In this document: positions 3,570 through 13,348 of the stretch, piece by piece
Layout of the letters: every line of letters begins with the position of its first letter
Position numbering within the stretch: the first letter of the stretch is position 1
Source: a virus
Taxonomy: Duplodnaviria > Heunggongvirae > Uroviricota > Caudoviricetes
Reading direction: 5' to 3' (one strand)
IMG/VR virus record: IMGVR_UViG_2706794684_000018
DNA: 14,801 nucleotides
Notes under the pieces: generated by a model
Told to the model about the DNA's origin: nothing
The model's database searches: none
Seen by the model: only the letters and a program-made list of their open reading frames with translations
Position numbers and translations under genes: made by a program

Positions 3570-4166
3570 TCACTTTTCCGACACAATACGACTGGAGGAA
3601 TCGACAATCTGTCGGACAATATCCCGGTGCTTGTTCAGCTCCCGCAGCGCGGCGCAGACTCGCTCCCACTTCTGGACATGATTTTTCGCCCGACGCAGTT
3701 CGCGGTTTGCCATATGCAGCGATGGTAAAACTAGGTCATCCGCTTGCGTTTCAGTAAACGATGGCAGCGACTGCACAATGTCCGCCACAGTTTCTGTTTT
3801 AATATCTTCCTGTGTTGCCGCTTCCTGTACTGGTAACGCAACACCGGCTGGCTGAGGAAAGGCTTTACCATCAGTTTCCGCTACCGATGCAGCTTTCGGC
3901 TCTGCTGGTAAATTATCGCCCGGCATGCAGTAACGAAATTTACTGTTCTGGTTTACGCGAATCAGGCGTCCTTTGCTGATTGCCATTGCCAGCGTTGAAG
4001 CAACTTTGCGGGATGTTGTACCGAACAGCGTAGCCAGTTCATCCGCCGTTTGTGGTCCGCGTTGTTCAATCGTCGCGGTTAAATCGCACTCTGAGATTTT
4101 CACTACAGTTGCCGTGGTGGTTTCTTCCGGCAGTTCTGCCTGCATTGGCTGTTCCTGCTGAACGTT
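3570..4166 (-). CDS. Hypothetical phage protein in the ydaW position (possibly DUF1627-like, winged-helix); 5' end hidden in the N-run
   Basis: The frame is open from the N-run (4167..4267) to the stop at 3572..3570, about 199 visible codons. The track fuses it with ydaV into a 463-aa ORF, which I consider an artefact. The first visible in-frame ATG is at 4145..4143, but the true start may lie inside the gap. Family guess is from memory of what follows DnaC-like genes in lambdoid prophages. Confidence 0.45.
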
Positions 4167-4267
4167 NNNNNNNNNNNNNNNNNNNNNNNNNNNNNNNNNN
4201 NNNNNNNNNNNNNNNNNNNNNNNNNNNNNNNNNNNNNNNNNNNNNNNNNNNNNNNNNNNNNNNNNNN
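4167..4267. other. Run of 101 N (assembly gap or masked sequence)
   Basis: Seen directly in the sequence. Hides the 3' end of ydaV and the 5' end of the downstream gene. Confidence 0.99.
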
Positions 4268-4961
4268 AATTCACCCATCGCCCGCCGTTCATGGTCATGC
4301 GATCCATAATCCGCTCGCCGAGCAATGTTTTCATGGCCTCATAGTTCAGGTTTGTCAGCATCCCCACGCTGCGCATCGACGCTGTCCGGCGATCAACAAT
4401 CTGGTGCAGCACCACCTGCTCGTTTTTCGTCTCGCGCTGAATGCCAATTTCATCAAGAACCAGCAGATCCACTTCGCATAGTTCCCGCAAAAATTTTTCG
4501 CCTGACTGCCCATCGTCATAGCTGGCGTGCAGGGCACTCATAACATCAGCCACGGTAACCACAATCACTGTCTGACCGTCTTTCAGCAGGCGATTCCCGA
4601 TAGCTGCCGCTAAGTGATTCTTCCCGGTACCAGGTTTTCCGCTGAACGCAAAATTTGTACACCCGGTCATCAGTTCATCAGCGATGGATTTCGCCTGACT
4701 CAACGCGTATCGCTGCGCTTCGTTCTGCACCTGGTAATTCGAAAACGAGCATTTGCGGTGCAATGGCTGGATGCCAGAGCGATTCAGAATTTTTTCCACC
4801 CGCAACTGACGATTCTGACGGTTGATCTCCTCACAACGTTTCTGGCCTTCGGAAAGTTGCCACTCGCGCCACTCCGCTACCGTCTTGAATGGCGCGGTTA
4901 CATGTGACGGGGCCAGTCTGCGGATACGTTCAAGAACGTCGCCTGTCGCAATATTTTTCAT
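4268..4961 (-). CDS. ydaV: DnaC-like replication/helicase-loader protein YdaV (visible portion; 3' end lies within the N-run)
   Basis: Starts MKNIATGDVLERIRRL...; contains the Walker A segment FSGKPGTGKNHLAAAIG and a DEIG Walker B-like motif, as in E. coli DnaC. Start ATG at 4961..4959 with a GGGGG Shine-Dalgarno upstream. If the protein is about 248 aa as I recall for K-12 YdaV, the stop would fall near 4215, inside the gap. Confidence 0.8.
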
Positions 4962-5849: not shown

Positions 5850-6272
5850 TTAATGAACAATGACAGAATCGTCGGAAGACCCGCCGCCGCTGAAATGCGC
5901 TTTCCGGTAAACGGCTTGGACTGCATCATCATGCGCATCAATTGCCGTACTTAACGCTTCCTGCGCCGCCAGTAATGCACGGCGTTCCAGGGTATCGAAG
6001 ATGCAGAGTCGGTGACGCAGCTCGCGCGGAAGGATTGCCAGAATTGCTGGGATCAGCTTCTGAATTTTTTCTCTTTGCGTTTTCGTTTCACCTTTCAACC
6101 AACGGTGATAGATATTCTGCTGATTATTCCAGTCCTTGCCTGGTACCAGGGGCAATTCGCCGCCCCCCTGGCGCAGATATTCTTCAGTAATGGCATTGGC
6201 TACCCATGCCTGCCCTTTTTCGGCTGCCAGGGCTAACAACACTGACTCGATGTGCTCATGCTTGATTTTCAT
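5850..6272 (-). CDS. ydaT: YdaT (CII-like regulator, formerly described as a toxin)
   Basis: 140-aa ORF MKIKHEHIESVLLALAAEKGQAWVANAITEEY... matches my recollection of K-12 YdaT. GGGAG Shine-Dalgarno 7 nt upstream; the start overlaps the ydaS stop as ATGA (6272..6269 on the minus strand). Confidence 0.8.
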   Translation of the reverse strand: MKIKHEHIESVLLALAAEKGQAWVANAITEEYLRQGGGELPLVPGKDWNNQQNIYHRWLKGETKTQREKIQKLIPAILAILPRELRHRLCIFDTLERRALLAAQEALSTAIDAHDDAVQAVYRKAHFSGGGSSDDSVIVH

Positions 6273-6523
6273 GAATCAACTCCCATCAGCTTTTTCGTAG
6301 TAGTTTTATTTCTGCCAATAGTTAAAATTACATCAGCAGAAAATAATCCGTTTGATGCATGAGCGATTTTTTCAGCGTAATTTGTTTCGCCGGTATATTC
6401 TGTGCGAGGCAATTTTCCGTTATCCATCCATTTGTAGATTGCTCTTTGGCTGACACCACAAACGTCGGCCACAACAGAAACGCGAACAGTTTTGATTACA
6501 TCTTCAAGTGTTTTCTGGTTCAT
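6269..6523 (-). CDS. ydaS: Cro-like helix-turn-helix regulator in the ydaS position
   Basis: Track ORF runs 6269..6595; the internal ATG at 6523..6521 is preceded by GAGGGTGAT and gives an 84-aa protein MNQKTLEDVIKTVRVSVVADVCGVSQRAIYKW... with an HTH-like segment. It is divergent from racR and upstream of ydaT, as in Rac. The sequence does not match my recollection of K-12 YdaS well, so the symbol rests on synteny. Confidence 0.65.
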   Translation of the reverse strand: MNQKTLEDVIKTVRVSVVADVCGVSQRAIYKWMDNGKLPRTEYTGETNYAEKIAHASNGLFSADVILTIGRNKTTTKKLMGVDS

Positions 6524-6602
6524 ATCACCCTCACAATGTGAACTTTGAGTACATGCTATAACAGAACTGACAGTACATTCAAGAGTGAATATCATTGAAC
6601 TT
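6524..6602. promoter_or_regulatory. Divergent racR / ydaS control region with candidate operator repeats
   Basis: Short intergenic region between the divergent repressor and cro-like genes. Contains the heptamer AGTACAT twice in direct orientation (6548..6554 and 6572..6578, 24 bp apart) and the palindrome TCACAATGTGA (6529..6539). No clean -35/-10 hexamers could be assigned by eye. Confidence 0.45.
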
Positions 6603-7022
6603 ATGGTTCATGAAGATAAAGCGCGTAAAGAGTTCGCCAGTAGGCTTGCGCTAGCCTGTGAAAACGCTGGTTATGAACAACATGGAAGGCAGGCAGAAAT
6701 TGCCCGTCGAATGAAATTAACACCAAAAGCGGTTAGCAAATGGTTTAATGGCGAAACAATTCCTCGCCGAGAGAAATTAAGGGAATTAGCAACACTCATT
6801 GGAACAACACCAACCTATCTTTTGGGAGAGGATACAGAAGAAAGTGGACAGGTACGTTTCTATCAGGAGTTAAATCCAAGACAAAAAATCATCATTGACC
6901 TTCTGGACGAGCTCCCTGACAGTGAGACAGATGAACTTTTAAAAACTCTTGAGGAGAAAAAACAGAAGTACAATGCAATTTACGAAGAGCTAGCACGAAA
7001 GAAAAAACAAAAAGCCTCTTAA
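6585..7022 (+). CDS. racR: XRE-family (lambda CI-like) prophage repressor RacR
   Basis: ORF with HTH segment GRQAEIARRMKLTPKAVSKWFNGETIPRREKLRELATLIG. It is divergent from ydaS-ydaT, the arrangement known for Rac. Start is ambiguous: GTG at 6585 or ATG at 6603, neither with a strong Shine-Dalgarno. Confidence 0.7.
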   Translation: MNIIELMVHEDKARKEFASRLALACENAGYEQHGRQAEIARRMKLTPKAVSKWFNGETIPRREKLRELATLIGTTPTYLLGEDTEESGQVRFYQELNPRQKIIIDLLDELPDSETDELLKTLEEKKQKYNAIYEELARKKKQKAS

Positions 7023-7032
7023 ACCAGCATAA

Positions 7033-7070
7033 ATCCGGTAGCGTCCCCCTCCGGGTTTGTGCTTCACTTT
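7033..7070 (+). terminator. Weak candidate terminator downstream of racR
   Basis: Stem ATCCGG (7033..7038) / CCGGGT (7051..7056), with one mismatched position (T opposite G, a U-G wobble in RNA), and a 12-nt loop, followed by TTGTGCTTCACTTT. The stem is short and the loop large, so this is low confidence. Confidence 0.3.
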
Positions 7071-7085
7071 ATCCCATCTCATTTT

Positions 7086-7145
7086 TTTACACACAAAATG
7101 TACTTATAGTACTTTACATCAATGAACACAAAGTACATTATATAC
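7086..7145 (+). promoter_or_regulatory. Candidate operator/promoter region upstream of ydaG
   Basis: Further copies of the heptamer: ATGTACT (7098..7104, reverse complement of AGTACAT), AGTACTT (7108..7114), AGTACAT (7132..7138). GTACT-TAT-AGTAC forms a palindrome at 7100..7112. TTTACA hexamers at 7086..7091 and 7113..7118 could be -35 elements, but no convincing -10 was found. Confidence 0.3.
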
Positions 7146-7312
7146 CTACCAACCCACCCCGCCCCACAGAACGCAGGGCAATACTTCGAGTTACCAGGCA
7201 GTGGTCAGGGGTTAAGTAGCCAGCCCGAGGCGTATGAACATGACGGCAGGGTTCAGATTTTGCAGTGCAGCAGGTTTCAGTTCCGCCACCCGGCGTTAAG
7301 GGGAGAGATAAG

Positions 7313-7447
7313 ATGGTGCATTACGAAGTAGTTCAGTATTTGATGGATTGTTGCGGTATCACTTACAACCAGGCTGTGCAGGCTTTACGCAGCAACGACT
7401 GGGATCTCTGGCAGGCAGAAGTCGCTATACACAGCAACAAGATGTGA
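7313..7447 (+). CDS. ydaG: Small Rac prophage protein YdaG (44 aa)
   Basis: ATG at 7313 preceded by AAGGGGAGAG; encodes MVHYEVVQYLMDCCGITYNQAVQALRSNDWDLWQAEVAIHSNKM. Length and position (between racR and ydaF) match my recollection of K-12 ydaG. The ydaG/ydaF labels could be swapped. Confidence 0.6.
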   Translation: MVHYEVVQYLMDCCGITYNQAVQALRSNDWDLWQAEVAIHSNKM

Positions 7448-7457
7448 GATTCGCAAA

Positions 7458-7613
7458 ATGCAAAAAATCGACCTCGGCAACAACGAATCCCTGGTGTGCG
7501 GCGTGTTCCCCAACCAGGATGGAACGTTCACTGCCATGACGTATACCAAAAGCAAAACATTTAAAACCGAAACTGGTGCGCGCCGATGGTTGGAGAAGCA
7601 CACAGTAAGCTAA
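7458..7613 (+). CDS. ydaF: Small Rac prophage protein YdaF (51 aa)
   Basis: ATG at 7458; encodes MQKIDLGNNESLVCGVFPNQDGTFTAMTYTKSKTFKTETGARRWLEKHTVS and ends with TAA at 7611..7613, overlapping the convergent sieB 3' end by 4 nt. Below the track's 60-aa cutoff. Weak Shine-Dalgarno; the call rests on position and length. Confidence 0.5.
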   Translation: MQKIDLGNNESLVCGVFPNQDGTFTAMTYTKSKTFKTETGARRWLEKHTVS

Positions 7614-8098: not shown

Positions 8099-8539
8099 AT
8101 CAATAACTCTCAACTGTAAGGGTATTGAAATGTTAACACAAGCTCTCGCTGTAGGGGTATAGCCGAGACCACCGAAGCCCGGAGGTGGTGAAATAAAACC
8201 GGGCACAACACGAAGGCGCATTTCCGATATCCATAAAGAGTCGGTCTTGTCTGTTAAATTTAAATGGTGGGAGTGCGCCTCCGGTTGTAAATAACGACAT
8301 TGCTGTGTGTAGTCCTGGCGGCATCAGTTTTTTTCTTGAAGTTCGGCTGATGTCCGCCCTTTTTAAAGTGAATTTTGTGATGCGGTGAATGCGGCTAAGC
8401 GCACGTGGCACAGTTAAAAGTCATGTTAGTCCTTATTGGTTTGGGTGGGAAAGCCGACTGTAATTGTTAACTGGTTGCAGTCACCTGGAGGCACCAGGCA
8501 CCGCATCAACAAAGTTCATTTGTAAAAATGGAGATAATT

Positions 8540-8761
8540 ATGATTGCACATCACTTCGGAACTGATGAAATACCACGTCAGTGTGTGACTCCTGGCGATT
8601 ATGTTCTTCATGAAGGCCGGACATATATTGCCTCGGCAAACAATATTAAAAAGCGAAAACTATATATTCGTAACCTGACCACAAAAACATGCATTACTGA
8701 CCGCATGATTAAAGTCTTCCTCGGTCGTGATGGTTTACCTGTAAAGGCGGAGTCATGGTGA
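8540..8761 (+). CDS. kilR: Killing protein KilR (FtsZ-directed cell-division inhibitor)
   Basis: ATG at 8540 preceded by GGAGA; 73-aa product [73 protein letters not shown] matches recalled KilR. The stop TGA (8759..8761) overlaps the ydaE ATG. Confidence 0.9.
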
Positions 8762-13249: not shown

Positions 13250-13348
13250 ATTGCATTGTATTCAAATTAAAACTTCATAGCTGATTATTAATAATCAACA
13301 TCGGGCGTCAATTTAAGTCTAACATTGGCGCCTGCCAGAGGTGATGCG

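Follow-up and report, generated by a model that had tools for sequence, protein, structure and literature searches.

The stretch of DNA analysed here (the window, 14,801 nucleotides) is that of a Rac-like prophage carrying ydaT, ydaG, ydaF, sieB, kilR, recE, recT, xis and int, and a prophage of O157:H7 EDL933 matches it at 97-99% identity. Within it lies an immunity cassette (Table 1) that is bounded by two breaks in a blastn comparison with the Rac prophage of K-12, where homology ends at position 6278 and restarts at 7147. The same cassette is found in phage Tritos, in which the counterpart of window positions 6249-7304 is 96% identical amid different flanking genes, the cro-OR-cI-OL/PL block of Tritos being bordered by different replication genes and by a different DicF/DicB region. 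The immunity cassette moves as a unit.

Table 1. Genes, operator sites and promoters of the immunity region and of the adjoining leftward operon (positions are those of the window).
Feature	Position	Strand	Sequence	Remarks
Immunity cassette	6279-7146	.		cro, OR, repressor, OL and PL; without homology to K-12 Rac
Cro-like protein	6269-6523	-		84 aa, HK022 Cro type
Immunity repressor	6603-7022	+		139 aa; HK022/933W-type HTH domain and DicA-like C-terminal tail
ydaG-like	7313-7447	+		First gene downstream of the PL equivalent
ydaF	7458-7613	+		Second gene downstream of the PL equivalent
OR1	6539-6553		TGAACTTTGAGTACA	15-bp dyad, perfect pattern match; holds heptamer 6548-6554
OR2	6563-6577		AGAACTGACAGTACA	One mismatch to pattern; holds heptamer 6572-6578
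OR3	6596-6610		TGAACTTATGGTTCA	Perfect palindrome; repressor ATG (6603) in the spacer
OL2	7099-7113		TGTACTTATAGTACT	One mismatch; halves are the inverted heptamer 7098-7104 and AGTACTT 7108-7114
OL1	7123-7137		TGAACACAAAGTACA	Perfect TGWAC-N5-GTWCA match; holds heptamer 7132-7138
PR-equivalent promoter	6553-6582	-	TTGAAT ... TATAGC/TAGCAT	For cro-like/ydaT; positional equivalent of HK75 pR
PRM-like maintenance promoter	6567-6595	+	CTGACA-17-TATCAT	Scan score 10/12
PL-equivalent promoter	7113-7141	+	TTTACA-17-CATTAT	Scan score 9/12

The repressor has HTH_3 as its only Pfam domain, with no Pfam match to Peptidase_S24, and in alignment it has no counterpart of the GDSM...K region carried by the repressors of HK75, 933W and a Klebsiella phage. 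Its DNA-binding portion is nonetheless that of the same group: residues 6-102 share 47% identity with HK75 CI (E = 2e-31), and over the first ~100 residues the identity is 51% with 933W CI and 62% with the Klebsiella phage relative, which has an S24 domain. Residues K42, S45, K46 and W47 are invariant in the alignment, and a single V/I exchange separates the recognition helix, TPKAVSKWFNGE, from its counterpart in HK75 CI. The tail is homologous to that of DicA, to which the protein as a whole is 30% identical over 114 residues (E = 9e-15). A sequence search of the PDB gave a weak match only, to the N-terminal domain of P22 C2. Phage Tritos has, annotated as CI, a protein with the same sequence as the repressor (100% identity), and the repressor is present at 99-100% identity in 80 viral contigs, while a scan of species-representative genomes recovered one locus, in Shigella flexneri, with a 100% identical repressor. 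A second, profile-based viral scan returned the same 80 near-identical loci and no diverged relatives, the latter having come from the phage collection.

The oppositely encoded Cro-like protein resembles HK75 Cro at 58% identity (E = 1e-32) and 933W Cro at 47%, and both the cro and the repressor ORFs are intact. On the other side of the repressor, the ydaG-like and ydaF products have the Pfam assignments UBA_4 and DUF1391, and the K-12 and EDL933 annotations agree. The leader that precedes these two genes (7148-7315) is widely conserved and was considered as a structured RNA; this was rejected, as the leader has no Rfam match and folds no more stably than shuffled sequences (z = +1.36).

The sequence-only reading had drawn attention to a heptamer, AGTACAT, repeated on both sides of the repressor gene, and every copy it listed is present in the sequence: direct copies at 6548-6554 and 6572-6578 (24 bp apart) and at 7132-7138, the inverted ATGTACT at 7098-7104, and AGTACTT at 7108-7114, with a GTACT-TAT-AGTAC palindrome readable at 7100-7112. 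Its further statement that the heptamer is absent from the sieB/kilR intergenic region is likewise accurate, with zero copies found there. Across the window, AGTACAT occurs four times against 1.25 expected from window shuffles, and at least four copies are seen in 7 of 200 shuffles. The number of heptamers taken alone is marginal, but their clustering is not. A 150-kb sample of the E. coli K-12 chromosome, searched on both strands, contains 7 copies (0.047 per kb), from which 0.007 copies would be expected in the two regulatory stretches (~150 bp together), where four are seen. The motif count that had been proposed as a check on the reading thus finds the heptamer concentrated ~570-fold over the E. 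coli background in the regulatory DNA, rather than spread at like density. That a short AT-rich word should have clustered by chance in promoter DNA that is itself AT-rich, a possibility to which the shuffles that attain four copies lend something, is accordingly a negligible prospect at this local density, all the more as the copies lie inside longer dyads with a fixed 24-bp spacing and at homologous positions that are conserved in phages whose repressors are just 47-62% identical.

An unbiased repeat search extends the heptamer into a 22-nt family, found at 6539, 6563 and 7123. The heptamer (A-GTACA-T) forms the right-hand half of a dyad 15 bp long, with the consensus TGWACT-N3-AGTWCA, and is composed of position 6', the right half-site GTACA and one flanking T; the base 3' of the half-site, at 6554, is T or C across variants, showing that this flanking T is not conserved. 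The heptamers had therefore been rightly taken for half-sites, whereas the true unit is the dyad. In the case of ATGTACT (7098) and AGTACTT (7108), the positions were correct, but the two together are the halves of one site, OL2. The list of sites was also incomplete, in that the third OR site, which lies over the repressor ATG, was overlooked because its half-site reads GTTCA.

Allowing at most one mismatch, TGWACT-N3-AGTWCA has exactly five matches in the 14.8 kb, all of them in the two regulatory stretches, against an expectation of 0.13, and none of 200 shuffles attains five, although the pattern was chosen after the sequence had been inspected, which inflates the significance of these figures. 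All five sites also fit the looser TGWAC-N5-GTWCA with no more than one mismatch, every mismatch falling at position 1 or 1', and this looser form occurs at 0.08 per kb in the 150-kb E. coli background. Adjacent sites begin 24 bp from one another in both regions, and the gaps between successive OR sites are 9 bp and 18 bp. When TGWAC-N5-GTWCA was run on HK75, seven matches were returned, six of which are the annotated operators (OFR, oR1-3, oL2 and oL1) with one extra, and six matches at homologous positions were returned for the Klebsiella phage. This retrieval of sites in HK75 and the Klebsiella phage is independent support for the dyad. A counterpart of oL3, sought 53 bp upstream of OL2 at the position that it occupies in HK022 and the Klebsiella phage, is not present, nor is an equivalent of OFR downstream of cro.

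The correspondence with known operators extends to each of the sites. The GenBank record of HK75 annotates HK022-like oR1-3, oL1-3, OFR, pR and pL, features that were assigned by similarity to HK022, and that of 933W annotates oR1-3, pR and pM; the operator positions of HK022 itself were taken from the HK75 annotation and from PMC8053113. For OR, an essentially ungapped alignment is obtained from the window, Tritos, the Klebsiella phage, HK75 and 933W; every member has gaps of 9 bp and 18 bp between sites, and the invariant columns are concentrated in the half-sites. Here OR1 aligns to the annotated oR1 of HK75, OR2 aligns to HK75 oR2 (GGAACTGATAGTACA), and OR3 is at the position of the annotated oR3 in both HK75 and 933W, with a sequence identical to HK75 oR1 and oR3. 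Across OL/PL (7082-7142) the identity is 80% with HK75 and 83% with the Klebsiella phage, with OL2 aligning to HK75 oL2 (TGTACTACTGGTACT) and OL1 to HK75 oL1 (TGAACTTTAGGTACA). A literal search of the literature for the OR3 sequence found no paper, and in the literature on Tritos, CP-933R and Sp10 none was found on this repressor or describing the cassette or its sites.

The placement of the sites with respect to promoters follows the same scheme. A consensus scan, scored out of 12, found exactly two plus-strand promoters between 6400 and 7400, one on either side of the repressor gene. The first coincides with the annotated pM of 933W when the latter is mapped through the alignment, and a transcript from this promoter would begin at or beside the ATG at 6603; the repressor mRNA would then be leaderless, as it is in lambda. 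The second maps exactly onto the annotated pL of HK75 in an ungapped blastn match (window 7082-7142 against L003, the HK75 sequence, 2246-2306), and it reads into ydaG-ydaF and probably onward to kilR, recET, xis and int. The PR equivalent, on the opposite strand, is a weak match to consensus, has a weak -10 and scores below the scan threshold, and it is recognisable through homology alone. Predicted start points lie near 6602-6603 for the repressor transcript, near 7148 for PL and, on the minus strand, near 6547 for PR. OR1 and OR2 overlap this promoter, OR1 being just downstream of its -10 and overlapping it, and OR2 lying between its -35 and -10 while also covering the -35 of the pM equivalent. 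At the other end of the cassette, the -35 of the pL equivalent lies between OL2, which abuts it, and OL1, which is placed between -35 and -10. OR3 covers the pM start. Operators over both lytic promoters and over the repressor start are the classical layout for lytic repression combined with autoregulation.

The repressor and cro-like genes occupy the places that racR and ydaS have in a Rac-like prophage, and the sequence-only reading had named them so, with the heptamers as operators of RacR and YdaS. The genes are instead those of an HK022-type repressor and Cro. The match of the repressor to K-12 RacR is confined to a 33-residue HTH stretch at 36% identity, and the Cro-like protein has no significant match to K-12 YdaS. 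The footprinted operator of RacR is (T/A)TAGGC-n3-GCCTA(T/A) (PMC9638921), a dyad that in the window has two matches at two mismatches, neither of them within regulatory DNA, against 3.56 expected, and forms no cluster. These protein comparisons, the missing operator cluster and the lack of blastn homology to K-12 Rac between 6279 and 7146 refute the assignment to K-12-type RacR and YdaS, which is left with a vanishingly small probability.

The comparison with K-12 is informative in another respect. In K-12 Rac, TAGGC-N3-GCCTA is found six times: four copies lie between racR and ydaS, and the other two precede ydaG, where they are 25 bp apart, flank a TTGACA and occupy the same place as OL in the window, just inside the boundary at which the two prophages regain homology. 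Operator sequence thus covaries with immunity type between the window and the heteroimmune K-12 Rac, at the same OR and OL positions. Depletion of RacR in K-12 derepresses ydaG, ydaF, kilR, recET, xisR and intR, a result that supports shared control of leftward and rightward genes. Since the operators in the window are likewise present at both regions, the leftward (ydaG-ydaF and beyond) and rightward (cro-ydaT and beyond) operons would be under shared control. Shared control of ydaG-ydaF with a ydaS-ydaT operon had been proposed from the heptamers; the shared control is upheld, but the gene ahead of ydaT is cro-like and is not ydaS.

Variation within the population was considered for the same sites. 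The 83 copies of the cassette represent 59 distinct sequences, and a position was counted as commonly polymorphic when at least four variants differed. Between 7086 and 7150 there are 16 such positions, located in operator spacers, between sites and in flanks, and none of the 20 positions in OL half-sites is commonly polymorphic (hypergeometric P = 0.001); with a threshold set after the data had been viewed, and with 59 variants that are phylogenetically related, this pattern is supportive only. It nonetheless bears on whether the sites might be relics of HK022-type operators, the regulation having been lost in a cryptic, decaying prophage. Defects are frequent among Rac-like prophages, the -10 of the PR equivalent is weak, and the window alone has a T at 6586 where 58 of the 59 variants have C, all of which would suit decay. 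A relic would sit poorly, however, with a repressor that is nearly invariant across the 80 viral contigs and in the deposited Tritos genome, with intact cro and repressor ORFs, and with common polymorphisms that shun the half-sites and gather in spacers and flanks, and loss of regulation is on these grounds unlikely.

It might also be asked whether something other than the 139-aa repressor binds the sites, be it YdaT, the CII analogue, or the Cro-like protein acting alone. An HK022-type Cro should recognise the same DNA, and YdaT of K-12 footprints within the racR-ydaS intergenic region (PMC11879457). The YdaT box, TTGATT-N6-AATCAA, is a different sequence, however, to which the heptamer sites have no match, and in the window it is located at 6262-6279 and 13281-13298, away from the heptamers. 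The repressor, moreover, has almost the same recognition helix as HK75 CI, a protein with annotated operators that match these sites, and this argues further against an exclusive role for another protein, which must be judged very unlikely.

Taken together, the sites are best explained as operators of an HK022/933W-type lambdoid repressor/Cro immunity cassette residing within a Rac-like prophage, a reading to which a probability of about 0.86 may be attached. The assignment draws on homology to operators of HK022 and 933W that have been annotated and studied by experiment, on promoter overlap, on covariation with immunity type and on the pattern of polymorphism, and these same lines of evidence bear out the original suggestion that the repeats are half-sites of operators lying close to promoters in two parts of the immunity module. 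Repressor dimers on OR1 and OR2 would be expected to occlude the rightward promoter, and with it expression of the cro-like gene, ydaT and the replication genes, whereas binding to OL1 and OL2 would occlude the leftward promoter, which serves ydaG, ydaF and probably kilR, recET, xis and int. Occupancy of OR3, which spans the repressor's own start codon and the predicted transcription start, would result in negative autoregulation. The HK022-type Cro is expected to act on the same sites during lytic development. The sites, their spacing, the homologies of sites and of both proteins, the coincidence with promoters and the conservation pattern are observations; binding itself, the order in which the sites are occupied, any cooperativity among them, the start points of the promoters and the extent of the PL transcript are predictions.

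The repressor itself is chimeric and probably non-cleavable, with an apparent HK022 specificity. A more ambitious and more tentative proposal, somewhat short of even odds, is that it represents a natural chimera in which a DNA-binding domain of HK022 specificity is joined to a DicA-type tail in place of a RecA-cleavable domain, making its carriers immune to HK022 and insensitive to the SOS response. OR3 has the very sequence of HK75 oR1 and oR3, the recognition helices are one V/I exchange apart, and if the repressor does bind the operators of HK022 CI, two properties would follow. First, Rac-like prophages and Tritos-like phages with this cassette would be immune to phages of HK022 immunity. 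Second, kilR, recET and ydaT would be kept silent in an SOS-insensitive manner, such that a different route of induction would be required.

For annotation, the analysis provides a correction to a very common prophage module of E. coli and Shigella, which occurs in the Rac-like prophage of EDL933, in the 80 viral contigs and in phage Tritos, and which consists of five operators, three promoters and an HK022-type repressor and Cro. The corrected annotation predicts that the toxic and recombination genes ydaT, kilR and recET are silenced by this repressor. It also carries a caution, as results obtained with K-12 RacR, including its operator sequence, are not portable to Rac-like prophages with another immunity cassette. 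No new principle is revealed; this is an ordinary lambdoid OR/OL system, and the class of operator is already known from HK022 and 933W.

The resemblance to HK022 and HK75 comprises the same 15-bp dyad, the same OR spacing, an oR3 that likewise lies over the cI ATG, and the same pL with its oL1 and oL2 layout. The differences are that oL3 and OFR belong to HK022/HK75 and were not found in the window, that the flanks here are of the Rac type (ydaT, ydaG, ydaF, sieB, kilR and recET) whereas HK022 has nun and cII, and that the repressor has a DicA-like tail where the S24 domain for autocleavage and oligomerisation would be. The S24-type C-terminal domain is thought to mediate the cooperative binding and DNA looping of HK022 and lambda CI. 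For a 139-aa repressor that lacks such a domain, SOS inducibility, cooperativity and OL-OR looping thus cannot be transferred from HK022 or lambda. For HK022 CI, cooperative binding to adjacent operators and looping between OL and OR have been reported (PMC8053113).

In the case of 933W, the sites are 15 bp long, with positions 2-5 (G, A/T, A, C) critical, A or T tolerated at position 3 and T or C at position 6, and are arranged as three OR and two OL sites (PMC3317979). The sites in the window agree with these properties, in length, in the bases at positions 2-6 and in the three OR/two OL layout. The position of pM is also the same, and the N-terminal domain of the repressor is similar (51% identity), with conservation of K42 and K46, the residues identified by mutagenesis as specificity determinants of the 933W repressor (PMC3317979). 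The 933W operators differ in favouring C at position 1 (CGTAC...), and the 933W repressor differs in possessing an S24 domain; this repressor reportedly binds adjacent sites without cooperativity (PMC3317979).

DicA of the Qin prophage resembles the repressor in size (135-139 aa) and in the combination of an HTH_3 domain with a homologous short helical C-terminal tail. The recognition helices are unlike (VAHVTISQWERDE in DicA versus LTPKAVSKWFNGE here, one V/I exchange from HK75 CI), and DNA specificity should therefore differ. With K-12 Rac, finally, the window shares a prophage backbone and a general plan, with several dyads in the interval from which the repressor and cro-like genes diverge, the last of them over the repressor ATG, and two dyads flanking a -35 upstream of ydaG (PMC9638921 and this analysis). 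What distinguishes the two is that the proteins are unrelated outside the HTH, and that their operators are unrelated in sequence, TAGGC-n3-GCCTA in K-12 Rac and TGWAC-N5-GTWCA here.

To judge from its sequence, the 139-aa repressor of the immunity cassette (window 6603-7022) is a natural chimera, with residues 1 to ~100 being of the HK022/933W CI type, and residues ~88-139 sharing homology with the DicA C-terminal tail, which replaces the S24 autocleavage domain. A relative in a Klebsiella phage, in contrast, has retained the S24 autocleavage domain, and is 62% identical to the window repressor across the first ~100 residues. Upstream of the repressor, position 6586, which lies within the spacer of the PRM-like promoter, is a T in the window whereas 58 of the 59 distinct cassette variants compared have a C. 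This T also creates an upstream in-frame GTG that was taken as the start codon in ORF calling.

On the other side of the repressor, the leader separating ydaG from the PL equivalent (window 7147-7304) is the piece of the query matched most widely in E. coli genomes, with thousands of records at 87-91% identity, and no annotated feature lies beneath these matches. The leader has no match in Rfam, and its predicted folding is no better than that of shuffled sequences (z = +1.36).

In the K-12 Rac prophage, a TTGACA sequence upstream of ydaG is flanked by two RacR-type dyads, TAGGCATAGCCTA and TAGGCATTACCTA, spaced 25 bp apart. By its sequence, the dyad pair looks like an OL for RacR, and is a putative operator. 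In K-12 transcriptomes, ydaG and ydaF are derepressed upon depletion of RacR. Neither gene is mentioned in the RacR literature examined, where operators are described only for the racR-ydaS intergenic region.

Features in the window and in compared sequences (L001 is the K-12 Rac sequence).
Feature	Location	Strand	Context or score
RacR-type dyads TAGGCATAGCCTA and TAGGCATTACCTA	L001 2990-3002 and 3015-3027		K-12 Rac, racR-ydaG interval
IstB/DnaC-like ATPase (ydaV-like) joined to DUF1627 domain, one 463-aa ORF	window 3570-4961	-	
Perfect YdaT box, TTGATTTTCATGAATCAA	window 6262-6279		over ydaT start codon (6270-6272)
YdaT box with one mismatch, CTGATTATTAATAATCAA	window 13281-13298; also L091 2502-2519		versus consensus TTGATT-N6-AATCAA
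DicF, Rfam match below gathering score	window 8304-8359	+	39.1 bits (gathering 48)
STnc100, Rfam match below gathering score	window 8361-8547	+	35.5 bits (gathering 47)

Both sub-threshold RNA matches fall in the sieB-kilR intergenic region, part of which (window 8354-8520) aligns with phage Tritos (L005 4639-4803); just upstream of the aligning stretch, Tritos has an annotated DicF sRNA (L005 4592-4644). As for the ydaV-like ORF, EDL933 differs in that ydaV and the DUF1627 protein are annotated as two separate genes.

The perfect YdaT box at the ydaT start agrees with the published YdaT box of CP-933P and Rac (PMC9986795, PMC11879457), and marks the immunity cassette's left boundary because K-12 homology ends at 6278. 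The one-mismatch box, which K-12 Rac keeps in the rcbA-xisR interval, precedes the start of xisR by ~51 bp. The published YdaT work examined makes no mention of xisR. By analogy, this box could be a site of action of YdaT, the CII analogue, at an xis/int promoter, the model for which is lambda CII acting at PI.
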